The notes under the pieces were generated by a model, which was not told where the DNA came from, searched no databases, and worked only from the letters and a program-made list of their open reading frames with translations. The position numbers were made by a program, and so were the translations under genes. Below are positions 20,591 to 62,451 of a stretch of 64,000 nt of DNA, in pieces. The DNA lies in contig NC_086097.1 in assembly GCF_963921235.1 (NCBI RefSeq), positions 105,898,001 to 105,962,000 on the forward strand, in the 5' to 3' direction. Each line of letters begins with the position of its first letter. Within the stretch, counting starts at the first letter, position 1. This DNA comes from Mobula hypostoma. Taxonomy: Eukaryota.

Positions 20591-20628
20591 CAGTCAATGT
20601 TTTGGGCCGGAACCCTTCGTCAGGACTG
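20591..20628 (-). ncRNA. Hammerhead motif in the 5' pLTR, core mutated
   Basis: CAGTC-CTGACGA-A-GGGT(TCCG)GCCC-AAAAC-ATT-GACTG. Confidence 0.65.
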
Positions 20629-37570: not shown

Positions 37571-38325
37571 AACGGGGCTGCTGTCTGGGCAAACCGCATG
37601 GTTGCATGCTGTTCCTAAAATTCCTCAGCTTCAAAACACCTTGACATGCCGTTGAGTGATTATGCAACTGTTCAAGAGCTTTGGGGTCACCAATGTAGGA
37701 TTTTGTGAATAAAACATGTGAGAGTCATTCTCTGTGCTTAACAAAAGCCACAACCTTTTACGAACAATCCAAAGACAGTCACCGTACTCTGACATCATTA
37801 TGTCAAACACCGTCTCTTAAAGTGAACACAGCAACTCAATGTCAAACAGTTTCTATTATGAACAATATGTGTCATATGTCACCCATTACTTCACCCTATG
37901 ATATTAAGATAGCAATAATTAGGGTTTAAAATTTGTGATTTAAACTGGCATTAACTGGCACAGTAAAGAGGAACAGAATTCTTGTAATGCTCTGAAGAAA
38001 ACCTTTAATTTAGTACACATCAAACCTAATGGGGTTATGGGCTAAACAGATTCATTCACTTAATATCTAATCATCTATGAATGTACAATATCTCCTGAAT
38101 ATATTCAAAAACTGAGCCTCTCCAACTCCCTTGGGTTAGAATTCCAAATATTCACTACCCTCTGAATGAGGAAATCTCTTCTCCATTCGGTACTGATAGG
38201 TCTTTCCTATCAGTACGGATTGCATCCTTCCTTTATGTTTTCAGTAAAGTTGAAAGTAAGTTCACTATCAAAGTATATGTATGTCACCATGTACAACCCT
38301 GATGTACATTTCCTTCTGAGCATAC

Positions 38326-39110
38326 TGTTACGTATCCTGTTACTGGGTTGCCAAACCAGCAGAAGTGGAACGCTCGCTGGAGTCTGGATTACTAAGAACT
38401 AATAAAGTTTTATTAAAGGCATAAGTAATACAGTACTCTAATCATAAGGATATCAATGTAACAGGTTAGCAATGATAATACACACTGTTACGTACCCCGT
38501 AACTGGGTTGCCAAACCAGCAGAAATGGATCACTCAGTTGGAGTCTGGATTACTAGAACTAAGAAAGTTTTATTAAAGAAACAAGCAACACAGTATTTGA
38601 AAGGATAATAAATGCAACGGTTCAGCAATGATAAACACACATGTGCACAGAATTATGATAACAGCATCAATCAAGCTCTATCGTTGTCTAGGGGTAAATT
38701 ACCAATTTCAAAGTGACACAAAAGTCCAGTTCGATTTAATAGTTCAGTTCGCAATAATCGCTGCCATGGCGATGGACAACGTGGGGGGAGAGAGAGAGAG
38801 AGGGAACGGGAACGACTGATCATTCAGAAACGGCTTCCACTCACAGACCGGCGATATTGCTCACAAGCCCCTTTCCAGGCGGGTCCTTTGTGATGTCACC
38901 TGAGGTCACCGACTGTGACCCCTCCTCCAGATGCAGTCGATCCTCTGCAGTGAACCCGGCACCCAAGCGAGGGTGGACATACAGTGGGTTCCCGCTGATC
39001 GTACCTTTCCACCCTGTGCGTTTAAGGTCCGATACTTCACACCGACTCGTGAGAGGCGCACCGCGTCCAGGGTCTCATTACCTCGGGTGTCGTGTGTGTG
39101 CTGCCTAATT
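38326..39110 (-). mobile_element. Two related LTR fragments, adjacent or nested (38326-38485 and 38486-about 39110), next to a Rex tail (38246-38325)
   Basis: Both start TGTTACGTA.CC.GT.ACTGGGTTGCCAAACCAGCAGAA. The terminus resembles the reverse complement of the Gypsy LTR end at 47184. Confidence 0.7.
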
Positions 39111-40636: not shown

Positions 40637-41780
40637 CAGCGGTCCCCAACCACTGGGCTGCAAAGCATGCGCTACCGGGCTGTGAGGAAACTATATGATT
40701 TGGCCATATGAGTCAGTTGCACCTTTCCTCATTCCCTGTCACGGCCACTGTTGAGCCAATACGCATGCGAGGTCATTATTCGCGCGTCATCCATGCCAGC
40801 ACAGGAAGGAGATCAACTCCTTGAGCTTGCAAATGACGGCGGGCTGAAAAGTATGTTTGACATAACATCTCTGCTGGCATTCTGGATCAAAGTCAAGGCT
40901 AAATATTCTGAGATAGCCACAAAAGCATTGAAAACGTTGCTTCCAACATATTTCTGTGAAGTGGAGTTTTCTGCAATGAATGCAACGAAAACTAAATTGC
41001 GGAATAAACTGTACATAAGGAACCCCCTTTGAGTATTGCTGTCTCCCATCACCCCTCAACAGGACTGTCTTGTTGCAGGGAAACAAGCCCAGGGCACCCA
41101 CTGATTCAGCGATATTGGTGTGTTGCAATGATTTTATTTGTTCATACGGGGAAAATATGCCCTGTGTGTTTAATACCCATACGTTACCTAAAATGTTATG
41201 ATGCTATTGACTTATATAACCATATAACAATTACAGCACGGAAACAGGCCATCTCTGCCCTTCTAGTCCGTGCCGAACGTTACTCTCACCTAGTCCCAGC
41301 AACCTGCACACATCCCACAACCCTCCAATCTTTTCCTGTCCATATACCTATCCAATTTTTCTTTAAATGATAATATCGAACCTGTTTCTGTCACTTCCAC
41401 TGGAAGTTTGTTCAATACTTACTTCAAGCTCCCCTGTCCTCCCGATAACTGACTTATCACTGTATTCATGCGAGGAAAATATATGCTGTGGGTTTAATAT
41501 TAAATTCGTTAGATAAACCCTTTTAGAAATGAAACTGAGTGTATTAGCCACTTATCACCTATATTCCAGTCATGATTAACACCCGCCCCCCTGAACAGAA
41601 TCGTCATAAATGATTTGCAGAAAAAAAATCGGCAGGTGCATGCATATGCAGGTTATGCAGGTTATGCATGTGCACCGGTGCCTGCGCAAGGCTTCATGGT
41701 CATTGTAGTCTTTCTCAGGGTAAACACAACATATTTGACTGCTACTCTTGTCCATTGGCAACCCTACCCCTCCCCCCCGC
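40637..41780 (+). mobile_element. Composite hAT (Buster/Charlie) derivative with a transposase C-terminal remnant; one end missing
   Basis: TIR CAGCGGTCCCCAACC after CCTTAAGA. hAT dimerisation-like peptide FWIKVKAKYSEIATKALKTLLPTYFCEVEFSAM...KTKLRNKL. CR1 tail at 41214-41410; TTGGCAACCCTA at about 41755. Confidence 0.85.
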
Positions 41781-41839
41781 CACTGCAATCTATTTTCCTA
41801 CAACATCAGCATCAGAACCAGGTTTAATATCACCGGCAT

Positions 41840-44800
41840 AAGACCATAAGATATAGGAGTAGAGGTAGGCCAATCGGCTCATCAAGTCTGCTCCAACATT
41901 CAATCATGTGCTGATCCAATTCTTCCGGTCATTCTCACTCCCCTGTCTTCTCCCCATACCCTTTGATGCCCTGGCTAATCAAGAACCTATCTATCTCTGC
42001 TTTTAATATACCCAATGACTTGGCCTCCGCAGCGCTCCTGGCAACAAAATTCACAGATTTACCACCCTCTGACTAAAGTAATTTCTTCGTATCTCTGTAC
42101 TAAATGGATGCCCTTCAATCCTGAAGTCAGGTGCTCTTGTTCTAGAATTCCCTACCACGGGAAATAACTTTGCCATATCTAATCTGTTCAGGCCTTTTAA
42201 CATTCGGAATGTTTCAATGAGATCCACCCCCCCCCGCCATTCTCCTGAACTCCAGGGAATACAGTCCAAGAGCTGCCAGACGTTCCTCATACAGTAACCC
42301 TTCATTGTCAGCATATCCTTTCTAAAATAAGAAGTCACAATAATAACCACACACAACACACCAAGTGTGGTCTCATATGACTTATAGAGCCTCAACATCA
42401 CATCCCTGCTCTTATATTCTATATCTCTAGAAATGAATACCAACATTACATTCGCCTTCTTCACAACCAACTCAACCTGGACGTTAACCTTTAGTGCACA
42501 AGGATTCCCAAGTCCCTTTGCATCTCTGCATTTTGAATTCTCTCCCCATCTAAATAATAGTCTGCCCATTTATTTCTTGCACCAAAGTGCATGACCATAC
42601 ACTTTCCAACATTGTATTTCATTTGCCACTTCTTTGTTCATTCCCCTGAACTATCTAAGTCTCTCTGCAAGCTCTCTGTTTCCTCAAAACTACCCGCTCC
42701 TCCAGCTATCTTTGTATCATCAGCAAATTTAGCCATGGATCCATTAATCCCATACTCTAAATCATTGACATACATCGTAAAAAACACCAACACCAACCCC
42801 TGGTGGAACGCCACTGGTAACTGGCAGCCAGCCAAAATATGATCCCTTTATTCCCACTTGCTGTTTTCTGACAATCAGCCAAAGCTCCACCATGTTAGTA
42901 ACTCCCCTGTAATTCCATGGGCTCTATCTTGCTAAGCAGCCTCATGTGTGACACCTTGTCAAAGGCCTTCTGAAAATCCAAGCACACCACATCTACTGCA
43001 TTTCCTTTGTCTACCCTGCTTGTAATTTCCTCAAAGAATTGCAGTAGGGTTGTCAAGCAGAATTTTCCTTTCAGGAAACCATGCTGGTTTTGGTCTATCT
43101 TGTCATGTGCCTCCAGGTACTCCATAATCTCATCCCTAACAATTGATTCCAACAACTTCCCAACTACTGATGTCAGGCTAACAGGTCTACAGTTTCCTTT
43201 CTGCTGCCTTCTACCCTTCTTAAATAGTGGAGTAACATTTGTAAATTTCCCGTCATCCGGTACAATGCCAGAATCTATCAATTCTTGAAAAATCATTGTT
43301 AATGCCTCTGCAATCTCTCCAGCTACTTCCCTCAGAACCCAAGGGTGCATTCCATCAGGTCCAGGAGATTTATCCACCCTCAGACCATTAAGCTTCCTGA
43401 GCACCTCCTCAGTCATAATTTTCACTGCACATACTTCACTTCCCTGACACTCTTGAATGTCCGGCATACTGTAAATGTCTTCCACTGATGCCAAATAAGC
43501 ATTCAGTTCCTCTGCCTTCTCTGCGTCTCTCATTACCACATCTCCAGAGTCATTTTCTATTGGTCCTATATCTCTTTTACACTTTATATACTTTAAAAAA
43601 TTTTAGTATCTTCTTTGATATTAGTCACCTTTGATAATTCATCTTTTCAAAGTGGTCCTCTTGAAGATCAGAGTGGTCGGCTATGTGCGGAACCAAAGGA
43701 AATGGGGGAGATCTTAAATAAGTGTTTTGCGTCTGTATTTACTAGGGAAACTGGCATGAAGTCTATGGAATTGAGAGAATCAAGTAGTGAGATCATGGAA
43801 ACTGTACAGATTGAAAAGGAGGAGGTGCTTGCTGTCTTGAGGAAAATTAAAGTGGATAAATCCCCGGGACCTGACAGAGTGTTCCCTCGGACCTTGAAGG
43901 AGACTAGTGTTGAAATTGCAGGGGCCCTGGCAGAAGTATTTAAAACATCGCTGTCTACGGGTGAGGTGCTGGAGGATTGGAGAGTGGCTCATGTTTTTCC
44001 GTTGTTTAAAAAAGGATCGAAAAGTAATCTGGGAAATTATAGGCCGGTGAGTTTAACGTCGGTAGTAGGTAAGTTATTGGAGGGAGTACTAAGAGACAGA
44101 ATCTACAAGCATTTGGATAGACAGGGACTTATTAGGGAGAGTCAACATGGCTTTGTGCGTGGTAGGTCATGTTTGACCAATCTATTGGAGTTTTTCGAGG
44201 AGGTTACCAGGAAAGTGGATGAAGGGAAGGCAGTGGATATTGTCTACATGGATTTCAGTAAGGCCTTTGACAAGGTCCAGCATGGGAGGTTAGTTAGGAA
44301 AATTCAGTCGCTAGGTATACATGGAGAGGTGGTAAATTGGATTAGACATTGGCTCAATGGAAGAAGCCAAAGAGTGGTGGTAGAGAATTGCTTCTCTGAG
44401 TGGAGGCCTGTGACTAGTGGTGTGCCACAGGGATCAGTGCTGGGTCCATTGTTATTTGTCATCTATATCAATGCTCTGGATGATAATGTGGTAAATTGGA
44501 TCAGCAAATTTGCTGATGATACAAAGATTGGAGGTGTAGTAGACAGTGAGGAAGGTTCTCAGAGCCTGCAGAGGGACTTGGACCAGCTGGAAAAATGGGC
44601 AGAAAAATGGCAGATGGAGTTTAATACAGACAAGTGTGAGGTATTGCACGTTGGAAGGACAAACCAATGTAGAATATACAGGGTTAATGGTAAGGCACTG
44701 AGGAGTGCAGTAGAACAGAGGGATCTGGGAATACAGATACAAAATTTCCTAAAAGTAGCGTCACAAGTAGATAGGGTCATAAAGAGAGCTTTTGGTACAT

Positions 44801-46185
44801 TGGCCTTTATTAATCAAAGTATTGACTATAAGAGCTGGAATGTTATGATGAGGTTGTATAAGGCATTGGTGAGGCCGAATCTGGAGTATTGTGTTCAGTT
44901 TTGGTCACCAAATTACAGGAAAGATATAAATAAGGTTGAAAGAGTGCAGAGAAGGTTTACAAGGATGTTGCCAGGACTTGAGAAACTCAGTTACAGAGAA
45001 AGGTTGAATAGGTTGGGACTTTATTCCCTGGAGCGTAGAAGAATGAGTGGAGATTTGATAGAGGTATATAAAATTATGATGGGTATAGTTAGAGTGAATG
45101 CAAGCAGGCTTTTTCCACTGAGGCAAGGGGAGAAAAAAACCAGAGGACATGGGTTAAGGGTGAGGGGGGAAAAGTTTAAAAGGAACATTAGCGGGGTCTT
45201 CTTCACACAGAGAGTGGTGAGAGTATGGAATGAGCTGCCAGATGAGGTGGTAAACGTGGGTTCTTTATTAACATTTAAGAATAAATTGGACAGATACATG
45301 GATGGGAGGTGTATGGAGGGATATGGTCCGTGTGCAGGTCAGTGGGACTAGGCAGAAAATGGTTCGGCACAGCCAAGAAGGGCCAAAAGGCCTGTTTCTG
45401 TGCTTTAGTTTCTATGGTTTTCTATGGTTTTCCTTCCTAATGACCTTCTTAGTTTCCTTCTGCAACTTTTTAAACACTTCCCAATATTCTATCTTCCCAC
45501 TAGCTTTGGCTTCCTTGTAGGCCCTCTCTTTTGCTTTTACTCTGGCTCTGACTTCACTTGTCTGCCACAGTAGTGTCATTCTTCCGTGCGAAGATTTCTT
45601 CTTATTTGGAATGTATCTTTTTTACACTTCCCTCATTTTTCGCAGACCATTGTTAGTCTACTGTCCTTCCTGCTAGTATCCCTTTCTAGTCAACCTTGAC
45701 CAGCTCCCCTCTCATGCGATTGTAATTTCCTTTATTCTACTGAAATACCGACACGTTGCAATTTAGTTTCTCCTTCTCAAATTTCAAAGTGAACTCGATC
45801 ATATTTTGATCACTTTTCCCTGAGGGTTCCTTAACCTTAAGCACTCTTATCACCTCCGGATCATTGCACAGCACCCAATCCAGCACAGCTGATCCTCTGG
45901 TGGGTTCAACAACAGGCTGTTCTAAAAAGCCATCTCTTAGACATTCTACAAATTCTCTCTCTTGATGTCCAGTACTAGCCTGGTTTTCCCAATCCACTTT
46001 CATGTTAAGATCCCCAATCCCCGATTATCATGATATTGCCCTTCTGACACACCTTTTCTATCTCCTGCTGTAATTTGTAATCCACATCCCTGGCTGCTGT
46101 TTGGAGGCCTGTATACAACTGCCATTAGGGTCCTTTTACCCTTGCCATTTCTTAATTTAACCCATAGAGACTCTACACCTCTACT
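41840..46185 (-). mobile_element. 5'-truncated CR1 (EN to tail) in two parts, 41840-43648 and about 45429-46185
   Basis: (CTTATGGT)n tail; RT motifs KSPGPDGMHP, DFQKAFDKV, KFADDTK; EN motifs LDWVLCND, KSDQN. Confidence 0.92.
43649..45428 (+). mobile_element. Young 5'-truncated CR1 inserted antisense into the previous CR1; RT frame uninterrupted to 45351
   Basis: Open frame with KSPGPD, NYRPVSLTS, DFSKAFDKV, GVPQGSVLGP, KFADDTK, FFTQRVV; tail TTTCTATGGTTTTCTATGG; TTTTC at both junctions. Confidence 0.95.
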
Positions 46186-47192
46186 GCATATGTCGTGAAA
46201 TTTGTTAACTTTGCATCAGTAGTATAATGCAATACATAATAATAGAGAAAAAAGCGTGAATTGAAGGAAGCATATATACTTACTGTAATAGTTAATAATA
46301 GTTAGTGTTACATACTCAAGGAGATCTGGTTGTTTTTTTGGTGAGAATGATGTAATGGTCTTTTGGAGGTCACCTGATGTGATTTTCCCATCGATGTGAG
46401 GTCACGTGATGACATGTGCCCCGTGACTATATAAGGGTCGACTCAGGTGACGCAGTGGGTTTTTGAGTTTGTAGATTTCCAGGTAGAACGTGCTGTGTCT
46501 CCATTTCTGTTGCGTGTTTGTTTTTGTGACGCAGTTTCATTTTTTAAAACGGAGGGTGCGTTCTCTTACAAGATATTGTATTTGGATTGGAAATTTGTGG
46601 CTGGAAGTGACAATTTACTCGATTCCGACAGTTTTGAAGGGAGAGTGAAGAATTCGTCGAAGTGAAGGATCGAGAGAAGTCGGCATCGTTTGGCAGTTTA
46701 ATAAAGAATCGATCTTATTGAGTCGTCGTTGAAGAGAACCTGCATTGAGATAACTCTTGCAATAGCGCAATGAGTTCATGCACAAAGGCTCTCTCTCTCT
46801 AATAGGAATTTAAGGTCGTCGATTTAAACTGTTTATTTTCGGCATCGGGAATCCTGTGGACAGAACCGGCAGGAAAGGTGCGTCGGTGAAGAAATCCTTC
46901 TCCAGAGAAGTCTCTCCCAATTGAATGTGTAAAACTGTTGGACTTTCGAAGTTATCACTTTAAGAACTATATCTGACTGTATCGCTTTAAGAACTGTTTT
47001 CGCATTTAACGCTTTAAGAACCAGAGCCGAGTGGAGTTGATGAACAGCTGCGTACCTGTTTAACCTCTGGTTAAAGTTTTCCATTGTTTTTTTTTCCCTT
47101 ATCATTTATATGTTTTTCATAAATGTTTGGTTGTTTTCATAAAACCTGTGTCGATTAATATTCAGTGTTGCCGGTTACGTAACATAATTTTG

Positions 47193-47208
47193 TGGGGGCT
47201 CGTGGGAT
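47193..47208 (+). other. Primer binding site, tRNA-Pro type
   Basis: TGGGGGCTCGTGGGAT versus canonical TGGGGGCTCGTCCGGGAT (2-nt deletion). Confidence 0.85.
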
Positions 47209-47317
47209 ATGTTCCAATTTTGAGTTTAAGTGCTGGTAACTGCCATTCTGATTTGGAAAGGGAATACCCGATTTTTTTTTTTTGGTTTGATTAGTGTGTG
47301 TGTTGTATTCGGCAACA

Positions 47318-48803
47318 ATGGATATTGATGAGTTTTTGAAGACACCTGACTTGGGATTTTTAGAGAATGCGAGAAAACCTGTGGTATTGGAGATTGCTAA
47401 GAAGTTGGATATTAAAGGAATTACAAGAAATTCTACCAAGGCTTTCATACAAAGGAAAATTGCTGAACATTATATTAATTTGGAATATTTTGAGGAGGAG
47501 GTGTTAGAGAAGTTTCCAATGAGTAATCTGGAAATGCAGTTGCATCTTGAACAGTTAAAGTTTGAAAGGTTTAAAGTGGAAATGAGAGGAAGAGAAGCTG
47601 AAAACCAGAGGAAATTTGAGCTAGAGATGGAGAAAATAAGGTCTGGGAATCAGACTTCTGGTTCTACAAAACTATTTATTGCTAGTCGTGAGGTTGTTTT
47701 GGCTCCTCCATTTAATGAAGCTGATGTGGATGCATATTTTCAGCATTTCGAAACAGTTGCTCTGAGTTTAAAGTGGCCGAAGGACCAATAGCCAGTGATG
47801 TTACAAAGTGTAAGTAAAGGCAAGACACAGCAAGTTTATACAGTTTTAAATGCTGAACAAGCACTGAATTATGATATTGTTAAAGAGAATATATTAAAGG
47901 CATACGAGCTGGTTCCAGAAGCGTATAGAGAAAGATTTAAAAGTTTAAAGAAATCGGTGGAAAAATCTTATGTGGAATTTGCCTATGAGAAATCTGTGTG
48001 TTTTGAGAGATGAGTTCCCTCTAAAAATGTGAATGGGGAGTATAATAAATTGAAAGAGCTGATTTTGCAGGAGGAATTTAAAAGAAGCATTCCTGATGAA
48101 GTGAGAACATACTTAAATGAACAGGACACTGCTACATTGCAGGAGATTGCTAAATTGGCTGATGATTATGTTTTAATTCACAAGAATAAATTTTCTCCAG
48201 GTAAATCTTTTAAAAGGAAAACTAGCACAGAGAGTCAAGGTAAACCCAGAAATTAAATCTGAAGTTAGTGAGAAAAGTAAGGATGAAGGGAGACATGTGA
48301 AGGAAAGACATTTTGGTATTATTTGTAATTATTGTAAGAAACCTGGACATGTAGTGGCTAATTGCTTCCGATTGAAACGGAAAGAGAAAGAAGTGGCCCC
48401 AGATGCTTGTGTGCAGCATATTGGAAAACCTGTAAAACCACAGGGTTTAGAAAATATTAATGAAGATGTGTCAGAGTCTGACCAAGTTAAGAGGGGATAT
48501 GAAGCTTTTATAACAGAAGGATTTGTATCCTTGAAAGAAGGATCCAATGCAGTACCGATAAGGATACTTAGAGATACTGGAGCTTCACAATCACTAATAT
48601 TAGATAGTGTGTTAAGGTTTAGTGATGAGTCTGACACTAATGAGGTAAATTATATAAGAGGAGTAGGGAGTGTCCTTATGCCAGTATATTTACATAGAGT
48701 AAATTTAAGGTCAGGATTAGTTACAGGGGGTGTTAAAGTAGGACTACAATCCAGTTTACCTGTGAATGATGTTTCTCTTTTGTTAGGGAATGATTTAGCC
48801 TGA
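47318..48803 (+). pseudogene. gag: Gypsy gag (SCAN-like capsid, CCHC knuckle) and aspartic protease, with stops and frameshift
   Basis: PPFNEADVDAYFQHFE, YDIVKENILKAYELVPEAYRERF, LILQEEF, CNYCKKPGHVVANC, LRDTGASQS, LLGND. Confidence 0.88.
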
Positions 48804-49689
48804 AGTTTTTCCTGAAGTGCATTTGACAATAAATTCAAATTCTGAGGAACCACAGAGGGATTCTAACACAGATTCTTCCTGTGTTGTCATAAGAGCTATG
48901 GCTAAAAAGACTGATGTAAAGGATGTGGTTGTTACCCAAGACAGTTCAAATCAAGATTCGAATTTTGAGGATGTATCAGAAACTTTCTTACCTACCTTAT
49001 TTGATCAGGATTTTGATGGTAAGTCTGATCAGGAAAATTTGTCTTAATCTCGGAAGGAGATGATAGCAGAGCAGGGTAGAGATCCTGAGATAGTTAAATT
49101 AAAGGAACAAGCTCTTCCAGTTAGTGAAATTGGAAAAGTTTCAGTTGGATATTATTTTGAAAAGGGGGTATTAATGAGAAAGTGGAGATCGCCTACAATT
49201 CTTGCTAGTGAGGAATGGGAAGTTAATCATCAGGTCGTTGTTCCCAAAATTTACCGAAATGAGATTTTGACTATGGCTCATAGTATTACTTTGGGCGGTC
49301 GTTTAGAGGTAAAGAAAACTATGAACAAAGTTTCTAAACATTTTTATTGGCCTAATTTAAGACAAGATGTGGCAACATTTTGTAGAATGTGTCATACATG
49401 TCAAATTGTTGGTAAACCTAATCAGGTTACTCCAGTGGCTCCACTGCAACCAATTCCTGTATTTGGTGAGCCGTTTTCAAAAATCATTGTAGACTGTGTA
49501 GGTCCTTTGCCAAAAACTAAAACTGGACATCAATATTTATTAACTATTATGTGCACAGCATCTAGGTTTCCAGAGGCAGTACCTCTTAGGAATATAACAG
49601 CCAAAACTGTGACAAAAGCTCTTATAAAATTCTTCACTTATTTTGGGCTGCCTAAGGAAATACAATCATATCAAGGAAGTAATTTTATG

Positions 49690-50176
49690 CAAACAACAGG
49701 AATTCTGCAGATGCTGGAAATTCAAGCAACATACATCAAAGTTGCTGGTGAACCTGATGGCATGAACATCAACTTCTCTAACTTCCGCTAAGGCCCCACC
49801 TCCCCCTCGTACCCCATCTGTTACTCATTTTTATGCACACATTCTTTCTCTCACTCTCCTTTTTCTCCCTCTGTCCCTCTGAATATACCTCTTGCCCATC
49901 CTCTGGGTCACCCTCCCCCCCTGTCTTTCTTCCCGGACCTCCTGTCCCATGATCCTCTGGTATCCCCTTTTGCCTATCACCTGTCCAGCTCTCGGCTCTA
50001 TCCCTCCCCCCCTGTCTTCTCCTATCATTTTGCATCTCCCCCTCCCCCTCCAGCTTTCAAATCCCTTACTCACTCTTCCTTCAGTTAGTCCTGACGAAGG
50101 GTCTCGGCCTGAAACGTCGACTGTGCCTCTTCCTATAGATGCTGCTTGGCCTGCTGCGTTCACCAGCAACTTTGAT
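49690..50176 (+). mobile_element. Short Penelope insertion with inverted 5' pLTR and a 14-bp TSD, inside the integrase
   Basis: TSD GAAGTAATTTTATG at 49676-49689 and 50177-50190. PDGMNINFSNFR stop matches the Neptune C terminus, followed by a CT-rich tail. Confidence 0.93.
50086..50123 (+). ncRNA. Minimal type-I hammerhead ribozyme motif, intact core
   Basis: TAGTC-CTGACGA-AGG(GTCTCGG)CCT-GAAAC-GTC-GACTG; predicted cleavage after C50118. Confidence 0.8.
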
Positions 50177-51142
50177 GAAGTAATTTTATGTATGGGTTGT
50201 TTCAGCAGATAGTTTATAAACTGGGAGCAAAGCAGATTATTTCCTCAGCCTATCATCCAGAATCACAAGGAGCTGGAGAGATTTCATTCTACACTAAAAA
50301 CTATGATTAGGACATATTGTGTAGTAAATGAAAAGGATTGGGATGAAGGTATACATGTACTACTTTTTGCAGTCAGGGAGGCAGTACAGGAATCATTAGG
50401 TTTTAGTCCTTTTGAACTTGTGTTTGGACATAGAGTTCGAGGACCTTTGGCTTTGTTGAAGGAACAGTGGATTAATAAAGAAGTACCCACTAGTTTGTTA
50501 GATTATGTTTTGAAATTTAAAGACAGATTGTACAAAACTTGTAGTTTGGCCAAGGAAAATTTAAAGTTAGCTGAAGAGAAGATGAAGACGTGGTATGATA
50601 AGGAAGCCAGGATGGGGTCATTTAAGCCTGGAGATAAGGTGTTGGTTCTTTTCCCAGTGCAAATGAACCCATTACAAGCAAAATTCCATGGTCCTTATGA
50701 GATTAAATCTAAAGTAAATGAGGTGGATTATGTGGTAAAAACCCCAGATAGGAGAAAGACAACACAGTTGTGTCATATAAACATGATAAAACCGTATTAT
50801 GAGAGAGAGGTTGCTACTGTGACTGTTAAGGAAAAGGGTTAAGGAAATTAAACTCCAATTTAATAATCCAGTTTAATGTTACAGGAGTACAATGTTTTGA
50901 TCACTCATATTAAGGGTAAAAACAATGTGATCGCTAACTGTTTGTCTGGATGTTAAATGTACAATGAAATTTTTTTTTGGAGTGATATTTTATCATTTGT
51001 AACACTCCTACTGTACATTAGTTTGTAAAGGGCTGAAAGATAAGATTGTATATATTGTGTATTTTGTAAATTTTATACCTTTGTATTTTTTTGTATAAAT
51101 TGTTAAATTTTTGTTCTTCAAAAGACCAAAAAAATTTTTTTT

Positions 51143-51151
51143 GGAGGGAGG
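51143..51151 (+). other. Polypurine tract
   Basis: GGAGGGAGG after a T run, directly before the 3' LTR. Confidence 0.85.
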
Positions 51152-52036
51152 TGTTACATGCTCAAGGAGATCTGGTTGTTTTTTTGGTGAGAATGATGTA
51201 ATGGTCTTTTGAAGGTCACCTGATGTGATTTTCCTGCCGATGTGAGGTCACGTGATGATGTGCCCCGTGACTGTATAAGGGTCGACTCAGGTGACGCAGT
51301 AGGATTTTTGAGTTTGTAGATATCCAGGTAGAACGTGCTGTGCCTCCGTTTCTGTTGCGTGTTTGTTTTTGTGACGCAGTTTCATTTTTTAAAACGGAAG
51401 GTGCGTTCTCTTACAAGATATTGTATTTGGATTGGAAATTTGTGGCTGGAAGTGCCAATTTACTCAATTCTGACAGTTTTGAAGGGAGAGTGAAGAATTC
51501 ATTGAAGTGAAGGATCGAGAGAAGTCAGCATCGTTTGGCAGTTTAATAAAGGATCGACCTTATTGAGTCTTCGTTGAAGAGAACCTGCATTGAGATAACT
51601 CTTGCAATAGCGCAATGAGTTCATGCACAAAGGCTCTCTCTCTCTCTCTCTAAAAGGAATTTAATGTCATTCGATTTAAACTGTTTATTTTCAGCATCGG
51701 GAATCCTGTGGACAGAACCGGCAGGAAAGGTGCTTCGGTGAAGAAAATCTTTTCCAGAGAAGTCTCTCCCAATTGAATGTGTAAAACTGTTGGACTTTCG
51801 AAGTTATCGCTTTAAGAACTATATCTGACTGTATCGCTTTAAGAACTGTTTTCGCATTTAACGCTTTAAGAACCAGAGCCGAGTGGAGTTGATGAACGGC
51901 TGCGTACCTGTTTAACCTCTGGTTAAAGTTTTCTGTTGGTTTTTTTCCCTTATTGTTTATATGTTTTTAATAAATGTTTGGTTGTTTTCATAAAACCTGT
52001 CTCGATTAATATTCATTGTTGCCGGTTACGTAACAT

Positions 52037-52343
52037 TAGAAACATAGAAACATAGAAAACCTACAGCACAATATAGGCCCTTCACCCCAGAAAGCTGTGC
52101 CGAACATGTCCTAACCACAGAAATTACCTCGAGTTACCCATAGCCCTCTATTTTTCTCAGCTCCAAATACCTGTCCAGGAGTCTCTTAAAAGACGCCATC
52201 GTGTCCGCCTCCACCATCATCACTAGCAGCCATGCACCCATCATTCTCTGTGTAAAAAACTTACTCCTGCCATCTCCTCTGTACCTATTTCCAAGCACCT
52301 TAACTGTGCCCTTTCGTGCTAGCTATTTCAGGCTTGGGAAAAA
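52037..52343 (-). mobile_element. CR1 3' tail fragment
   Basis: (TAGAAACA)n on the plus strand; similar to 11520-11825. Confidence 0.9.
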
Positions 52344-52600
52344 GTTAAATTAATTAAGCAGTGCAGTGCAAAAGCAGAAATAAAAATGTAGTGAGGTAGT
52401 GTTCATGGATTCAATATCCATTCAGAAATCGGATAGCAGAGGGCAAGAAGCTGCTCCTGAATTGTTGAGTGCATGCCTTCAGGTTTCTGTACCTCCTTCC
52501 TAATGGTAACAACGGGAAGAGGGCTTATTTTGGTCCTGTGTAGTAGCCCTCCCCCCATACCAGAGCAGCCAGTTAGAATGCTCTTGAAAGTACATCAGAC
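52344..52600 (-). mobile_element. Rex1/Babar 3' end; its other pieces are at 46187-46305 and 41805-41839
   Basis: GAAGCTGCTCCTGAA...CTGTACCTCCTTCCTAATGGTA parallels the LLPSG.RYR coding region of the other Rex copies. Confidence 0.7.
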
Positions 52601-53829
52601 TGGAATTCTCCAATGTTCAGTGTGGTAATGGTGTGACATGTATTAATTATTCAGCTGAGGAAGGGTAAGACTAATAATGAGGATAATCAAGTAATCTGGC
52701 CTCATAAATTGTAGAATTACAAACTACCGTCTCCCCAAGGTTAGTGTAACAGTGAGCGGTGCGATAGCACATGAAAGAATGCATAAATCACAACAAACAT
52801 CCACAATCACTTTCCTTCTCAGCAATTATATCAGAATTCATGCTGTTCAAGAGATTCAGGTGAGTGTTCTGTGAATCTGCAGAGAAAACCTGTATCAAAG
52901 CTGTAAGATATGATTCGATTGACATTTTCCAAAGGAAACTAAGGGAGTTAGCAGAAGAATCATTGGAAAAAATGAGGACTACATACTCTAGATGTTATCT
53001 GCTTTGCTTGCATAAGCACCTCTGAAGAGACTTATTACCAACTAACATAAAATGAAAAGTATGAGAAGAGTATGGGAGTGTGCACCTGCCAGACATTCCT
53101 GTCATTTCTGGCTTGTCACTCAGTGTTAAGACCTTCACAGAAGACAAGAACTACATACATAAAATCTAATGCTAAACTTTGAGCTGTCATTCATCAATCC
53201 TGGTGAAATCATAAAGGTCGCAAATAACATCAGTGCCTATCACAGAAATTTAATTTTTTAATATTTCTGACGTAGGATTGCAGCTATTTTGAAATCAAAT
53301 GCTATTTGAGTTGATTAGTCAAAGATTTCATTTTAAGTTTGGCTGCCTGTATTACACAGATGTCTGCTAAGGTGTAGATGATGTTTATCTTGCAGAAAGG
53401 CTTCAAGAATAGATTGAACTGAAAGCAAATGTTAATTAATAGCTCAGCATTAACATTCCCATCCTTGGCTTTCACTATCTGTCTCTGCAATCACTTGCAT
53501 TCTTGCAACCCCACAAGGAATCTGCAAATGCTCAGTTCTGTTTTAAATAATTATTAAAAAGAAAATTCATGTCTATTATTTGTTTTTTCCCGGCATGGCC
53601 ACCTTCTCTTTTACTACTCCCTGCAAATGTGGTCATCCAAAATCATTCTGGCTGTGCACTAACCTTTACCAAGTCCCATTTGCCCAATACCTCTGTTATA
53701 GGATTCTCATTAATGAAGATAGATCACAGCTCCCTCATGTGCCCTCAGCCCCATACTCTACTCCCTGTACACTCACGATGATGTGGCCAGATTCTGCTCT
53801 ATTTCCACCTCCAAGTTTGTAGATGGACC

Positions 53830-54425
53830 AAGTCTCAAATAATGACAAGTCAGAGTACAGGAAGGAGAAGGAGGCTTAGTGCCATGGTGTTGTGACGATA
53901 ACCTCTCCCTCAATGTCAACGAAAAGTTGGATGATGACTTCAGAAAGGGATGATGCACTTGGTCCTGTCTACCTCAATGGTGTTGAGGTTGCGGAGCTTG
54001 AGAGCTTCAAGTTCCTAATGTAAACATAACCAATAGTCTATCCTGGTTCAACCACACCGATGTCATGGCCAAGAAAGCTCACCAATGCCTCTATTTCATC
54101 AGGAGGCAAAATAAATTTGGCATGACCCTGTTGACCAGCACCAATTTTTATCAATGCGCCATAGAAAACATTCTATATGGATGCATAGTAGCTTGCTATG
54201 CTAATGGTCCTGCATGCAATCGCAAAAATCTGCAGAGTTATGGGCACAGCTCAACAAATCATGAAATCTAGCCTCTCCTCTATGGACTCTGTCTATACTT
54301 CTCACTGCCTCAGTAAAACAGCCAGCATAATCAAAGATCCCACCCATCCCAGACATTTATTTCATCTCTCCCTCTTCCATTGGCAGAAGGTACAAAAATC
54401 TGGAAGCATGTACCACCCCAAGCAG
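53830..54425 (+). mobile_element. Degenerate Rex1/Babar RT 3' fragment, followed by a Penelope pLTR scrap (54430-54520)
   Basis: KKAHQCLYFIRR, FYQCAIENILYGCIVACY, IIKDPTHP. Confidence 0.8.
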
Positions 54426-54994
54426 GAGAAAATCTGCATAAGCTGGAAATCCAAGCAACACACACAAAATGCTGGAGGAACTCAGCAGGCTAGGCAGCAT
54501 CGATGGAAAAGAGTGAACAAAAATGCTCTCCCTCAACTTCTTTAGATCATTATTAATTTTACAATAAACCTGCCTTGTAGGTCAATTTTAAATCATTGCC
54601 TTAGTATCTTTCTATGTGGTTCAAAGTTATGTTTTGATTTGATAATGCTTCTGTGGAAAACACTAAGAAGATTTTTAATAAATATTATTGGAAACGATTG
54701 TTCTTTTACTGTATTAAAGGGTGTGTGTTGTTTTTAAAGATAGAGTTATTTCTGATAGGGATAATAAAATTTTAAAAAATCTAAACAAGGTGATAGGCAT
54801 CAATAAAATGAATTTCTCTGAAAGTACAACAGATCTTTAGTGTTGAACTAGAATGAAAACCTAGATTATGAGCTAGGACTTGTGTATAAGCCTGCCAGGT
54901 TATCTGTGGCCATTCTACTGATGTTACAGAGGATAGCAGGAAAACAGTTATAGAAATACAACAGCCGGTAATTTCAATATAATACAGTTAACAT

Positions 54995-55555
54995 TAGTGG
55001 GAAGTTGGAGGATTGGGAAGCTTTTAAAAATCAACAGAAAGCAACTAAAAAAATCAGAAAGAGAAAAAAGATGAAATATGGAAGGAAGCTAGCCATTAAT
55101 ATAGAAAGAATACAATAAGTTTTTTCAGATATATAAAGAGTAAAAGGGAGTCAAGAGTGGATATTTGACCACTAGAAAATGGCACTGGAGAGGTAGGCAG
55201 ACTGAATAAGTATAAGTATTTTGCGTCAGTGTCATAGTGGAAGACAATGGCGGAATGCCACAAGTGTCAGAGTGTCAAGGGGCAGAAGTTGATTTTGTTG
55301 TTATTACTAAGGAGAAGGTGCTTGGGAAGCTGAAAAGCATGAAGTCACCTGGACCAGACGGACCACAATCCAGGATTCTGAAAGAGGTCACTGAAGAGAT
55401 TGTGGCGGCATTAGTAATGATCCTTCAAGAATCACTGGATTCTGGAACAATTCCTGAGGACTGGAAAATTGCAAATTTCACTCCACTGTTTAAGAAAGGA
55501 GGGAGTCAGAAAAAAAGGAAATTATAGGTCAATTAGCCTGATTTCAATGGTTGGA
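54995..55555 (+). mobile_element. CR1 ORF2 internal fragment
   Basis: KSPGPDG, PEDWKIANFTPLFKKG, GNYRSISL. Confidence 0.85.
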
Positions 55556-56270
55556 AACACTGCCCCTGATGGATGTCTTCTGACATTTGCTCTAAGAAGA
55601 TCTGTTCAAACAGCAGGCAAGGCTTATGGGAGTCTGCCAGTGCTAGCATGTCGCTCATCTGGTCTGATGGTGCGCGGCCACCCAGGCCGTCCATATGTAG
55701 TAACTGCATGGCCCGTTCGTGGCGGGAGAGGCCAAACGTGCGGATTAACAGGGCCTTGAGTGCCTCGTACCTGTCTATTGCTGCGGGCTGACGCAGAATG
55801 TTGATAATGCGGCCCACTGTCTCCTGGTCGAGGGCGCTCACCACATAGTAATACCTGGTGGCATCTGAGACAATTTGCCTGACCTGGAACTGGGCCTCTG
55901 CTTGCTCAAACCAGTCCAGGGGTTGGGTGGTCCAGAAGGTTGGCAGTTTAAGGGAAGCTGCATTCTGCAGAGCCGAGTGGTTCATCTTGTGTCCAAATGC
56001 CGTTGGACCGTCGGGGTCACCAATGTAGTTGCGCTGATACACAACGAGTGAAAACAACACACTGACTCCAGCAGTGTCGGGTTGAACCATTTACTGTTTG
56101 AATCGGTGCGCGCTTAAGTACCCGCTCCCAGCAACCCCCGCTCTTTGCGGGGCAGAAGCGACGTCGGCTTCCGGGCCGAGGTCTGCCCCGCACTCAGAGT
56201 CCTCTCAGTTGCCGCTGGCTGCGAGCTCGCCAGCGACTGCTGGAGCTGGTTCGCTTGCTGCGTGGGCACA
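55556..56270 (-). mobile_element. gag: Gypsy 5' LTR (56024-56270), tRNA-Trp PBS (56009-56022) and gag N-terminus; remainder lost
   Basis: TG...CA CpG-rich LTR; PBS TGGTGACCCCGACG; LKLPTFWTTQPLDWFEQAEAQF...YYYVVSALD. Confidence 0.88.
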
Positions 56271-56526
56271 GTATATTCCAAAAAAGAAGAAATTTTCGAT
56301 TGGAAAAAGGATGCAACCGTGGCTGAAAAGAAAAGTCAAGGCCAAAGTTAAAGCAAAGGAGAGGGCATACAAAGGAAGCAAAAATTAGTGGGAAGACAGA
56401 GGATTGGGAAGTGTTTAAAAGCTTACAAAAGGAAACTAAGAAGGTCATTAAGAGGGAAAAGATGAACTATGAAAGGAAGCTAGCAAATAATATCAAAGAG
56501 GATACTAAAAGCTTTTCCAAGTATAT

Positions 56527-56739
56527 ATTCAAGTCATTCCTGCCTTTGGCCATCAAACTTTACAACTCCTCCCTTGGAGGGTCAGACACCCTGAGCCAAT
56601 AGGCTGGTCCTGGACTTACGTCATAATTTACTGGCATAATTTACATACTACTATTTAACTATTTATGATTCTATTACTATTTATTATTTATGGTGCAACT
56701 GTAATGAAAACCAATTTCCCCCAGGATCAATAAAGTATG

Positions 56740-56775
<36 letters not shown>
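56527..56775 (+). mobile_element. Rex-type LINE 3' tail with (CTAA)n end
   Basis: KSFLPLAIKLYN C terminus; GGATCAATAAAGTA followed by (CTAA)n. Confidence 0.8.
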
Positions 56776-56776
<1 letters not shown>

Positions 56777-57439
56777 AGAGTAAAATACAGGTGAGAGTAG
56801 ATATAGGACCGATAGAAAATGATGCTGGAGAAATTGTAATGGGAGATAAGGAGATGGCGGAGGAACTGAACAAGTATTTTGCATCAGTCTTCACTCAGGA
56901 AGACATCAACAGTATACCGGACACTCAAGGGTGGCAGGGAAGAGAAGTGTGTGCAGTCACAATTACGACAGAGAAAGTACTCAGGAAGCTGAATAGTCTA
57001 AAGGTAGATAAATCTCTCTGACCAGATGGAATGCACCCTCGTGTTCTGAAGATTGCGGAGGCATTAGTGATGATCTTTCAAAAGTCGATAGATTCTGGCA
57101 TGGTTCTGGAGAGGACTGGAAGATTGCAAATGTCACTCTGCTATTTAAGAAGGGGGCAAAGAAGTAAAAAGGAAATTATAGACCTGTTAGCTTGACATTG
57201 GTGGTTGGGAAGTTGTTGGAGCCGATTGTCAAGGATGAGGTTACGGAGTACCTGGAAGTATATGACAAGATAGGCAGAACTCAGCATGGTTTCCTTAAAG
57301 GAAAATCCTGCCTGACAAACCTATTATAACTTTTTGAGGAAATTACAAGTCGGCTAGACAAGGGAAATGCAGTGGATGTTGTATATTTGAATTTTCAGAA
57401 GGCCTTTGACAAGGTGCCACACATGAGGCTACTTAACAA

Positions 57440-58413
57440 TATATTGTTACAATATATATTAATGACTTAGATGAGGGAATTAAATGCAGCATCTCCAAGT
57501 TTGCGGATGACACGAAGCTGAGCGGCAGTGTTAGCTGTGAGGAGGATGCTAAGAGGATGCAGAATGACTTGGATAGGTGAGGTGAGTGGGCAAGTTCATG
57601 GCAGATGCAATTTAATGTGGATAAATATGAGGTTATCCACTTTGGTGGCAAAAACAGGAAAACAGATTATTATCTGAATGGTGGCTGATTAGGAAAAGGG
57701 GAGGTGCAACGAGACCTGGGTGTCGTTGTACACCAGTCATTGAAAGTGGGCATGCAGGTACAGCAGGCGGTGAAAAAGGCGAATGGTATGCTGGCATTCA
57801 TAGCAAGAGGATTTGAGTACAGGAGCAGGGAGGTACTACTGCAGTTGTACAAGGCCTTGGTGAGACCACACCTGGAGTATTGTGTGCAGTTTTGGTCCCC
57901 TAATCTGAGGAAAGACATTCTTGCCATAGAGGGAGTACAAAGAAGGTTCATCAGATTGATTCCTGGGATGGCAGGACTTTCATATGATGAAAGACTGGAT
58001 CAACTAGGCTTATACTCGTTGGAATTTAGAAGATTGAGGGGGGATCTTATTGAAACATATAAAATCCTAAAGGGATTGGACAGGCTAGATGCAGGAAGAC
58101 TGTTCCCAATGTTGGGGAAGTCCAGAATGAGGGGTCACAGTTTTAGGACCGAGATGAGGAAAAACTTCTTTACACAGAGAGTGGTGAGTCTGTGGAATTC
58201 TCTGCCACAGGAAACAGTTGAGGCCAGTTCATTGGCTATATTTAAGAGGGAGTTAGATGTGGCCCTTGTAGCTAAAGGGATCAGGGGGTATGGAGGGAAG
58301 GCTGATACAGGGTTCTGAGTTGGATGATCAGCCATGATCATACTGAATTGCAGTGCAGCTCGAAGGGCCGAATGGCCTACTCCTGCACCTATTTTCTATG
58401 TTTCTTTGTTTCT
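57440..58413 (+). mobile_element. 5'-truncated CR1 of another subfamily nested in the same orientation
   Basis: ISKFADDTK through FFTQRVV with its own (TTTCTATG)-like tail. Confidence 0.9.
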
Positions 58414-60157
58414 AAGATAAGAGCCCAAGGAATTATGGGAAAGTTACATACGTGGATAGGGCGTTGGCTGATTGGCAGGAAACAGAGAGTGGGAATAAAG
58501 GGATCCTATTCTGGTTGGCTGCCGGTTACCAGTGGTGTTCCACAGGGGTCCGTGTTGGGGCCACTTCTTTTTATGTTGTACATCAGCGATTTGGATTATG
58601 GAATAGATGGCTTTGTGGCTAAGTTTGCTGATGATACGAAGATAGGTGGAGGGGCTGGTGGTGCTGGGGAAACAGAGAGTCTGCAGAGAGACATGGATAG
58701 ATTGGAAGAATGGGCAAAGAAGTGGCAAATGAAATACGGTGTTGGAAAGTGTATGGTTATGCACTTTGGCAGAAGAAATAATTGGGCAGACTATTATTTA
58801 AATGGGGAGAGAACTCAATGTTCTGAGATGCAACGGGACTTGGGAGTCCTCGTGCAGGATACCCTTAAGGTTAACTTACAGGTTGAGTTGGTGGTGAAGA
58901 AGGCAAATGCAATGTTGGTATTCATTTCTAGAGGAATAGAATATAGGAGCATGGATGTGATGTTGAGGCTTAATAAGGCGCTGGTAAGACCTCACTTGGA
59001 GTACTGTGGGCAGTTTTGGTCTCCTTATTTAAGAAGGGATGTGCTGACGTTGGAGAGGGTACAGAGAAGATTCACTAGAATGATTCCGGGAATGAGAGGG
59101 TTAACATATGAGGAACGTTTGTCCACTCTTGGACTGTATTCCTTGGAGTTTAGAAGAATGAAGGGGGACCTCATAAAACCATTTCGAATGTTGAAAGGCA
59201 TGGACAGAGTGGATGTGGCAAAGTTGTTTCCCATGATGAGGGAGTCTAGTACAAGAGGGCATGACTTAAGTATTGAAGGGCGCCCATTCAGAACAGAGAT
59301 GCGAAGAAATTTTTTTAGCCAGAGAGTGGTGAATCTATGGAATTTGTTGCCACGGGCGGCAGTGGAGGCCAAGTCATTGGGTGTATTTAAGGCAGAGATT
59401 GATAGTTATCTGAGAAGCCAGGGCATCAAAGGTTATGGTGAGAAGGTGGGGGAGTGGGACTAAATGGGAGAATGGATCAGCTCATGATAAAATGGCAGAG
59501 CAGACTCGATGGGCCAAATGGCCAACTTCTGCTCCTTTGTCTTATGGACTTATGGAATTGAAAATGAGATAGTCCAGGTCACTGTATTTGGCGTGAATTT
59601 TCAATGTGTTGTCGGTAAGGGAGAGCAGTGACAGGTCCCATAAGGCAACTGGGAGAGGGCATCCAACAATCTGCATCTGGTGCACCAATGATCACTGCAC
59701 TGCGCTCACTATTTCTAAACCTGCACCGACACATGATTAATTCATATAAGGCAGAAGTCCCATCCCCAGTCACAACATCTCCTAGCTCTTGAAGAACAAT
59801 AATCAATACCTGCATGGCAAACATCTGTTCCTAGCTGATATCTCTCTGCTCCCAGGAAAAATAATAGGTTTGTTAAGTGGGGTGGTATATAATATGTGCC
59901 TTGAACTGTGTGAGCTGCTGAGGTGCAAAGGAATGCCTGTGTGTTAATAAAGACTGGATCAGCTGGAAGGATAACGCACTTACACCAGTATACTGCAGGA
60001 AGCCAACACAAACAGCAAATCTACCACAATAAAGCAATATCAACTCCAAAGAATAGGTCATGTCACCCAGATGCCTAACTCTTGTCTCACCAATTTACTC
60101 TCACTTGAAGGAAGATCAATGCTCCACTAGTGGGCAAACAAAACACTTCAAAGATAA

Positions 60158-61630
60158 CATCCCAAATATCGATTGGCATCTCCCTAGAATGAGGAGTTTA
60201 GATGGGGTGGAGTTTGTTAGGTGTGTTCAGGAAGGTTTCTTGACACAATATGTAGATAAATCTACAAGAGGAGAGGCTGTACTTTATCTGGTATTGGGAA
60301 ATGAACCTGGTCAGGTGTCAGATCTCTCAGTGGGAGAGCATTTTGGAGATAATGGTCACAATTCTATCTCCTTTACCATAGTATTGGAGAGGGATAACTC
60401 AGATAAGTTAGGAAAGTGTTTAATTGGAGTAAGGGGAAATATGAAGCTATCAGGCAGGAACTTGGAAGCATAAATTGGAAAGCAGATGTTCTCAGGGAAA
60501 TGTATGGCAGAAATGTGGCAAATGTTCAGGCGATATTTGCGTGGGATTTTGCACAGGTATGTTCCAATGAGGGGAAGGATGGTAGGGTACAGGGAACATG
60601 GTGTAGAAAGGCTGTTGAAAGTCTAGTCAAGAAGAAACAAAAAGCTTATGAAAGGTTCAAAAAACTAGGTAATGTTAGAGATCTAGAAGATTATAAGGCT
60701 AATAGGAAGGAGCTTAAGAAGGAAATTATGAGACACAGAAGGGGCCATGAGAAGGCCTTGGCGAATAGGATTAAGGAAAACCCCAAGGCATTCTACAAGT
60801 ATGTGAAGAGCAAGAGGATAAGACGTGAGAGAATAGGAGCAATCAAGTGTGACAGAAGAAAAGTGTGTATGGAACCGGAGGAGAGAGCAGAGGTACTTAA
60901 TGAATACTTTGCTTCAGTATTCACTACAGAAAAAGATCTCGGCCATTGTAAGGATGACTTGCAGCAGATTGAAAAGCTTGAGCATATAGACATTGAGAAA
61001 AATTATATGCTGGAGCTTTTGGAAAGCATCAAGTTGGATAAGACATACCCCAGGCTACTGTGGGAGGCAAGGTAGGAGATTGCTGAGCCTCTGGCGATGA
61101 TCTTTGCATCATCAATGGGGATGTGAGAGGTTCCGGAGGATTGGAGGTTTTCACATGTTGTTCCCTAATTCAAGAAAGGGAGTAAAGCTAGCCCAGGAAA
61201 TTATAGACCAGTGAGTCTTACTTCAGTGGTTGGTAAGTTAATGGAGAAGATCCTGAGAGGCATAATTTATGAACATTTGGAGAAGTATAATATGATTAGG
61301 AATAGTCAACATGGCTTTGTCAAAGGCCTTACCAGCCTGATTGAATTTTTTGAGGATGTGTCTAAGCACATTGATGAAGGTAGAGCAGTAGATGTAGTGT
61401 TTATGGATTTCAGCAAGGCATTAGATAAGGTAGCCCATGCAAGGATTATTGAGAAAGTAAGGAGGCATGGGATCCAAGGGTATATTATTTTGTGGATCCA
61501 GAACTGACTTGCCCCCAGAAGGCAAAGAGTGGTTGTAGACGGGTCATATTCTGCATGGAGGTCGGTGACCAGTGGTGTGCCTCAGGGATCTGTTCTGGGA
61601 CCCCCTCCCCCTTCTCTTCGTGATTTTTAT
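60158..61630 (+). mobile_element. CR1 ORF2 fragment (EN end to mid-RT), same family as 11495-16477
   Basis: PNIDW, LVLGNEPGQV, IKENPKAFYKY, DFSKA, GVPQGSVLGP; breaks at the (TG)n tract. Confidence 0.92.
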
Positions 61631-61631
61631 T

Positions 61632-61757
61632 GGTGTATGTGTGTGTGTGTGTGCGTGTGTGTGTGTGTGTGTCTGAGAATGAGTTTGTGTGTGTATGTGT
61701 CTGTGTTTATGTATGTGTGTGTAAGTGTGTGTGAGAGAGAGAGAGTGTGTGTGTCTC

Positions 61758-61799
<42 letters not shown>

Positions 61800-61828
61800 T
61801 GTGTGTGTGTGTGCGTGTGTGTGTGTGT
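61632..61828. repeat. Compound (TG)n/(AG)n microsatellite
   Basis: Direct inspection. Confidence 0.97.
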
Positions 61829-62451
61829 TGGAGAGGTGAGGCGCAGTTTGCTGCAGGGTCATGTGACATGCCTGCTTCACAAAGACTATAACAGTTTCAG
61901 AGACATTCAATCTGCCAGTTGACAATTTATTGATAGTGTCGTATCAATAGATCTTTAATCTTTCAGGAAAGACAGCATATGCTGCCATGGCACTGGAAAT
62001 TTCTGGTTCGGGCCCTGCTTCCTCAGCCCACTCTGAGGAAAAGGAAAAGATACAGCAGGATAAATTGGCAGGCTCAGGTGGTTGTCAAAATAGTCAACTT
62101 CAATAAATTAAAATGAGTTGGAAACACAGATTCTGCTTAAAGAATATGATTTTGAAAAAGAGAGAAAAGGTGACTAAAGGGTATTAGTCAGAATTAAGGA
62201 TTCCAGAGGACTCGCTAGATAGAAAGGGCATGGAAGTTTGGAAAGCAGATTTTACACTCTGTTGCTGGTAGTTCCAGACTGAGTTGTCAGTGTGTGGTCA
62301 TTTAAATGGCATTTGGTTCAAGGCTTGGACACGTGTCATCAACCACTCAAGTTCCAGGTTAATTGGATTTGACCATGTGAATCTGTCGGTCCTCAAATTT
62401 GATGGATTTCAGGGATTTGGATTAGGAGGCAAATGGGAAGATAAACTGAGG

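Follow-up and report, generated by a model that had tools for sequence, protein, structure and literature searches.

The 64,000-nucleotide stretch of Mobula hypostoma DNA analysed here (the window) holds, at 50086-50123, a complete hammerhead motif in a fragment of a Penelope-like element (PLE) that lies inside a broken Gypsy element, and the ribozyme is very probably an inert passenger that would cut rarely or never. The motif, the anatomy of the insertion, its empty site, its sense orientation and the breaks in its host are direct observations, and, as far as sequence goes, the motif is confirmed to be a Penelope pLTR hammerhead of the minimal type-I class, oriented in sense with the Gypsy element. 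Cleavage at 50118 in this locus is unlikely.

A minimal type-I hammerhead motif

The motif was assigned by sequence reading, core pattern, descriptor and fold, and consists of the following parts.

50086 to 50123, + strand: minimal type-I hammerhead motif, 38 bases
50087 to 50090 with 50119 to 50122, + strand: stem I, AGTC with GACT, plus an outer U·G pair (50086/50123)
50091 to 50097, + strand: core CTGACGA (CUGACGA in RNA)
50098, + strand: extra unpaired A between A9 and stem II
50099 to 50102 with 50107 to 50110, + strand: stem II (G·U, G-C, G-C, U·G) with a CUCG loop
50111 to 50114, + strand: GAAA, and 50114 to 50117, loopless ACGU (ACGT) palindrome (15.2-16.2, no loop 3)
50118, + strand: C17, with the predicted cut after it and UC at 50117-50118

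An earlier sequence-only reading had named stem I, CUGACGA, a short stem II, GAAA, ACGU and a cut site at 50118, and all of these were found where it had placed them. The conserved core (CUGANGA, GAAA and UH) is present throughout, and stem I, with four Watson-Crick pairs and one U·G, has the 4-5 bp closing stem of type I. The same reading had called the ribozyme intact; this holds for the catalytic core, which is complete, but not for stem II, which opens with G10.1·U11.1 where the conserved pair is G10.1-C11.1. The wobble lowers the case for activity but leaves the homology of the motif untouched. It need not inactivate the ribozyme, because G·U or A-U occurs at 10.1-11.1 in three published minimal hammerheads (one cichlid and two coelacanth rows in the supplement excerpts of PMC4209133). 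No measured cleavage rate for a wobble at 10.1-11.1 was found in the literature searched, which included sections of PMC2837043, PMC544870 and PMC11300833.

The core pattern matched twice in the window, with 0.01 matches expected. A full descriptor, comprising the core, a palindromic stem III, a stem I of at least 4 pairs and a stem II of at least 3 pairs, also matched twice, at 50091 (+) and 8378 (-), compared with five matches in total over 300 dinucleotide shuffles. A search with hammerhead models had been suggested as a check. Rfam, searched over 45000-55000 with E up to 5 and over 50040-50180 with E up to 10, returned no hammerhead; the purpose-made descriptor matched at 50091 (+).

The Penelope-like insertion

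The motif lies within an insertion that was delimited by a TSD search and by the empty-site joint.

49676 to 49689, + strand: left copy of a 14-bp TSD, 14/14 identical to the right copy
49690 to 50176, + strand: 5'-truncated Penelope-like insertion, 487 bp
49690 to 49753, - strand: inverted arm, repeating the final 19-20 bases of the sense part in reverse and adding a tail of ~45 bases
49751 to 49791, + strand: 3' end of the Penelope endonuclease ORF, its last dozen codons (DGMNINFSNFR, stop), identified by C-terminal match
49792 to 50176, + strand: pLTR, with a pyrimidine-rich tract, the hammerhead and a conserved downstream block
50177 to 50190, + strand: right copy of the 14-bp TSD, from the TSD search

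That a Penelope insertion interrupts a Gypsy integrase, as had been claimed, is borne out by the 14-bp TSD, by an empty site and by integrase domains on either side, Pfam placing the zinc-binding and core domains to the left of the insertion and the C-terminal SH3-like domain to the right. The TSD has A or T at 11 of its 14 positions, and contigs from three of the four runs join 49677 directly to 50179, omitting 501 bases. The region 49733-49752 matches 50158-50177 in inverted orientation at 20/20 positions, and the ~45-base tail occurs at the left end only and resembles the 3' ends of the pLTRs of a long PLE elsewhere in the window. The insertion is truncated at its 5' end and carries an inverted copy next to the sense part and a tail at one end only, as in EN+ Penelope-like insertions, and this combination is published PLE anatomy (sections of PMC8557442 and PMC11167929). 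The peptide DGMNINFSNFR matches the C-termini of the long PLE (LGMNSEFSNFQ) and of a homolog, P0003, and contigs in three of the four runs extend upstream of 49751 into a common sequence. The hammerhead is situated downstream of the endonuclease stop codon, i.e. within the Penelope pLTR.

Contig joints landing in 50084-50096 were also inspected. Among the 15 listed (of 399), ten tie the inverted arm to the hammerhead at its 5' edge, and at 50119, the cut site, there is no joint. It may be common for sister mini-insertions to begin at the motif's outer edge; the joint list is biased, however, in that this edge is also where conservation sets in. A single contig of run X1 passes from 50123 to 50087 with one base between and, if real, would hold the 37-base motif twice, head to tail, and so provide a natural cis dimer.

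The host Gypsy element and the rest of the window

46306 to 47184, + strand: 5' LTR of a Gmr1-type Gypsy element, TG...CA, with TSD TTAG at 46302-46305
47291 to 50953, + strand: broken gag (SCAN-like, zinc knuckle), protease and integrase of the host
51152 to 52035, + strand: 3' LTR, with TSD TTAG at 52036-52039 and a purine tract just upstream

Host and hammerhead are both on the + strand, so the sense orientation that had been described stands. The LTRs differ by 38 substitutions over 877 aligned positions (K2P 0.045). Stops lie in frame at 47789, 48011 and 49045, the frame shifts near 48250, 48800 and 50270, and the RT and RNase H region of relatives (~470 residues) is missing between 50827 and 50870. 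With these stops, frame changes and missing domains the element is dead with or without the Penelope insertion. The last 28 codons of pol remain despite the loss of RT and RNase H. A TATA-like box is located at 46428-46435 in the 5' LTR, and the matching site in the 3' LTR, near 51272, differs from it by one base. Neither LTR gave a hammerhead profile match of note.

The best relatives of the host proteins are ray proteins (70-79% identity). Protease, integrase and RT follow one another in that order in all four full-length relatives examined, and in the window integrase comes directly after protease. Following a cited title, we take an integrase upstream of RT to be the defining Gmr1 order. 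The SCAN match in the host gag (E 1.4e-4) is below the curated cut-off, and the closest relatives carry PF02023; a SCAN domain is reported in over half of frog Gmr elements (a section of PMC4131045).

The window is almost all repeats. Pfam was run on 60 of the 155 stop-to-stop frames of at least 85 aa, and among these 60 frames no host exon was identified; three RT and two ALKBH8_N matches were returned, which we take to be LINE remnants. Large LINE remnants with RT and endonuclease frames lie on both strands (4300-8100, 11800-16350, 41400-45350 and 55000-64000), and at 38321-38595 two similar units 160 bases apart, each beginning near TGTTAC, resemble short LTR-like repeats. No tRNA genes were found in a scan, and a scan for bacterial promoters and terminators, irrelevant to this DNA, was empty.

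Related copies, CpG decay and stem covariation

Two other Penelope copies in the window bear most closely on the motif.

16995 to 20930, - strand: decayed but near-full-length Penelope-like element, the local superfamily reference, with two pLTRs and a CX3CxxC linker
8346 to 8383, - strand: sole other copy in the window with a complete core, also with G10.1·U11.1

The long element aligns to RT and GIY-YIG proteins, the best being shark proteins at 61-65% identity. Its pLTRs are 87% identical to each other and carry the hammerhead at an equivalent place, and both hammerheads are damaged at the same CpG by a change of G12 to A. Upstream of its 5' pLTR (~20880-20950) the last codons of the ORF stand three times in tandem. 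As its pLTRs are only ~60% identical to that of the 49690-50176 insertion, the long element belongs to another subfamily. Of the telomerase-like RT and C-terminal GIY-YIG endonuclease of EN+ Penelope-like elements, the insertion itself keeps just the last dozen endonuclease codons. A Neptune label for the insertion is tentative, the CX3CxxC linker being seen in the long relative, outside the insertion; a CX2-5CxxC-type linker between RT and endonuclease is described for both Neptune and Nematis (a section of PMC8557442).

The hammerhead region is retained in seven copies in the window, two of which have the full core. One other copy with the region is on the + strand; it is dead, 20 kb upstream and outside the LTRs, and descriptor and profile searches found no second sense hammerhead copy between the host LTRs. 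Two further short Penelope insertions, at 29680-30070 (+) and 33470-33780 (-), consist of an inverted tail arm followed by a pLTR with a dead hammerhead. By summed contig depth, which is not a copy number, the motif exceeds the Gypsy flanks by two to three orders of magnitude. With a family so abundant, by contig depth and by seven copies in 64 kb, insertions into other repeats are expected.

At positions 11.1-12 the seven copies read TG twice, CA four times, GG once and CG never. CpG deamination yields either TG or CA, so an ancestral G10.1-C11.1 is probable, and the U at 11.1 probably arose by CpG deamination after insertion. The basis for this is the seven local copies and the published consensus; the 40 rows listed of 166 for contigs over 50110 do not include the family's majority base. 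The motif and its sister copies have up to four CpG sites at core or core-adjacent positions (7-8, 11.1-12, 15.2-16.2 and 17-1.1). Methylation-driven decay may switch PLE hammerheads off quickly in vertebrate genomes.

Covariation of the stems across copies had been put forward as a further check, and here the local family and the motif class gave different results. Within the seven local copies, 85.7% of stem cells are paired, compared with 18-47% in slid registers; one cell is changed on both sides, the covariation score was reached by 296 of 500 shuffles, and the pairing pattern is what neutral decay of sister copies would give. A family-specific pattern matched 0 metagenome stretches. A looser pattern matched 119 metagenome loci in one sixty-fourth of the collection, and because none of these resembles the insertion (blastn, E 1e-3) they test the motif class and not the insertion's family. 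Since the extra A, ACGT and two pairs of stem II were prescribed by this pattern and stem I was left free, it was stem I that was tested. We used 118 matches, 108 of them distinct; 103 had enough flank and were reduced to 67 families, selected by nothing but the core and the ends of stem II. A Watson-Crick stem I of at least 4 pairs was present in 21 of the 108 distinct motifs, compared with a mean of 1.05 after re-pairing, and one of at least 3 pairs in 26 of the 67 outside families, compared with a mean of 2.2 and a maximum of 8. Stem I of the motif class covaries strongly.

Predicted folding

Folded on its own, the 38-mer is predicted to form stems I and II at probabilities of 0.87-0.98, with its core held in a GACG/CGUC helix (0.98). 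The monomer cannot close stem III because it has no loop 3, so a second RNA is needed that joins the first at ACGU and exchanges stem I strands with it. Nearest-neighbour energies are -11.5 kcal/mol for the double hammerhead, -11.0 for each inactive monomer and -30.3 for the best dimer; such energies omit tertiary contacts, magnesium and proteins. With fewer than 16 upstream bases the probability of stems I and II ranges from 0.01 to 0.93, and with at least 16 it falls to 0.00-0.01 in all 15 segments starting at 50070 or earlier. The competing structure is as follows.

50072 to 50102, + strand: predicted hairpin (probability ~0.9) that pairs the C/U tract with the core and with the 5' side of stem II

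Pairing of the upstream C/U tract with the GAAGG run is predicted in four of the five window copies folded. A conserved off-switch based on this tract was considered and rejected: across the 67 outside families, upstream-core pairing was 0.27, compared with 0.24 in shuffles (p 0.84), and of six tests for word enrichment two fell below 0.05, with effects that were weak and did not agree.

Discussion

Our preferred explanation is that the hammerhead came to this site with its element and has been decaying since. Drawing on the literature for the insertion steps, a Penelope RNA would have undergone target-primed reverse transcription at an AT-rich nick in the LTR element, with reverse transcription beginning in the tail, ending early and leaving the inverted arm. 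In an active element the double hammerhead would be formed by two RNAs joined at ACGU, each lending a strand of stem I to the other, with the element's protein probably assisting. The shared orientation of motif and Gypsy element would be chance, and the passenger ribozyme would now be decaying at its CpG sites. Any read-through RNA would have its core sequestered, either by the upstream C/U tract or by the GACG/CGUC helix, and would have no partner in cis. What speaks against an inert passenger is that the catalytic core is complete and that stems I and II form in the isolated 38-mer; in addition, partners in trans could be common in so abundant a family.

The sequence-only reading went further than this and proposed that an LTR-driven transcript would carry a working self-cleavage site at 50118. 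We do not find support for that proposal: (i) the class needs a dimer or the element's protein and there is no partner in cis; (ii) the helices are predicted not to form in context and (iii) the host is broken and lacks RT. Dimer cleavage is reportedly the subject of a study by Lunse et al. in 2016. Published work, cited throughout for sections of each source, describes PLE minimal hammerheads as inactive as monomers and cleaving at low levels as dimers (Cervera and De la Pena 2014, PMC4209133), and a review likewise gives dimer cleavage and low rates for such hammerheads (PMC6765202). For the PLE of Anolis, Frangieh et al. 2024 (PMC11167929) report, in the sections cited, no cleavage without the element's protein, protein-assisted cleavage with it, insertion that does not require cleavage, and an absence of RNA-seq ends at the cut site.

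A conditional form of the proposal is that RNA from the 5' LTR, or host read-through RNA, meets a sister pLTR RNA or Penelope protein and is then cut after 50118. We consider this improbable. The complete core, the TATA-like box at 46428 and the published families with G·U at 10.1-11.1 (PMC4209133) would permit it, as would the abundance of the family, which is also present in a run guessed to be RNA, and the protein-assisted cutting of the Anolis hammerhead (PMC11167929). Weighing against it, the core is predicted to be sequestered in context, the double hammerhead is less stable than two inactive monomers by ~10 kcal/mol and than the best dimer by ~19, and cleavage is low even in forced dimers (PMC4209133). 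Moreover, the sense part of the insertion has no tail, and in the Anolis element the mapped protein-binding region is downstream of the hammerhead (PMC11167929).

It is very improbable that the RT-less LTR element captured the Penelope hammerhead and is propagated as a chimera, mobilised in trans, with the ribozyme processing its RNA. The host does have the build of a non-autonomous element: RT and RNase H are cleanly lost, and both LTRs, PBS-like and purine-rich primer sites and a 4-bp TSD are there. The perfect TSD of the PLE gives no date for the insertion relative to the LTRs. However, the empty site is found in three of the four runs, a single internal hammerhead would split the RNA in two, and plant LTR retrozymes carry a hammerhead in both LTRs (a section of PMC5680766). 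In the contigs of the run guessed to be RNA, no Gypsy-Penelope junction is bridged among the 32 pieces listed of ~215,000, which tells neither for nor against. The accompanying suggestion, that dimerisation of packaged RNA supplies the partner for the loopless ribozyme and that we are looking at an animal LTR retrozyme in the making, is every bit as improbable. If the chimera were true, animals would have their own equivalent of plant LTR retrozymes, and double-hammerhead cleavage would have a setting in vivo. Finally, the idea that 50086-50123 is a chance sequence with no hammerhead homolog, which could appeal to the lack of an Rfam hammerhead match and to covariation no better than shuffles in the seven local copies, has next to no likelihood and is refuted by the descriptor counts in shuffles, by the motif at an equivalent place in both pLTRs of the near-full-length PLE and by stem I pairing in the outside families.

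Returning to the passenger that we favor, this copy is one more nested insertion of a retroelement in a retroelement, with a known motif, and as it stands it matters little. A solo copy that is partly decayed and whose host is dead offers a poor test of cutting in vivo, for which a young tandem element with two intact pLTRs would be better suited. A route from Penelope pLTRs to LTR-type retrozymes in animals would be indicated only by recurrence of the junction at many loci.

Comparison with known systems

In the literature searched we found no report of this Penelope family or of a hammerhead in a nested insertion of this arrangement, and the two supplement files of PMC4209133, in the portions drawn on, have no shark, skate or Callorhinchus entry. 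The motif class itself has been known since 2014, and what is particular to this locus is only the landing site. Minimal hammerheads are reported in Xena, Poseidon and Neptune elements of fish (PMC4209133), and hammerhead-bearing repeats in one chondrichthyan have already been described (a section of bioRxiv 10.64898/2026.07.22.740005).

The closest likeness is with the PLE minimal hammerheads as given in sections of PMC4209133. The shared features are type-I topology, a stem I of 4-5 bp, an extra base at 9/10.1, which is typical before stem II in these ribozymes, the absence of loop 3, a palindromic 15.2-16.2, a position in the pLTR and an occurrence mostly as solo copies in truncated elements. 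This copy differs in its shorter stem II (four pairs, two of them G·U), in its C at position 7 and in G10.1·U11.1, the G10.1-C11.1 pair being highly conserved in the published set (PMC4209133). The Poseidon element of Anolis carolinensis (PMC11167929, sections cited) likewise has a hammerhead in the pLTR, an optional tail at one end and an AT-rich target, but it is complete and active in vitro, whereas 487 bases are left here. The long relative in the window also has a CX3CxxC linker as in Neptune or Nematis, unlike Anolis Poseidon.

The host resembles Gmr1-like Ty3/Gypsy elements in its putatively SCAN-like gag, 4-bp TSD, TG...CA LTRs and the protease-integrase-RT order of its relatives, but the copy in the window lacks RT and RNase H and its reading frames are broken. 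With retrozymes the locus shares a hammerhead within a non-autonomous retroelement. Plant LTR retrozymes have a type-III hammerhead in both LTRs (PMC5680766, in part), whereas here there is one internal type-I copy. Non-LTR retrozymes, for which an origin from PLE pLTRs has been proposed in animals, are built of tandem units, each with a hammerhead (bioRxiv 10.64898/2026.07.22.740005, in part), whereas the copy described here is solo.
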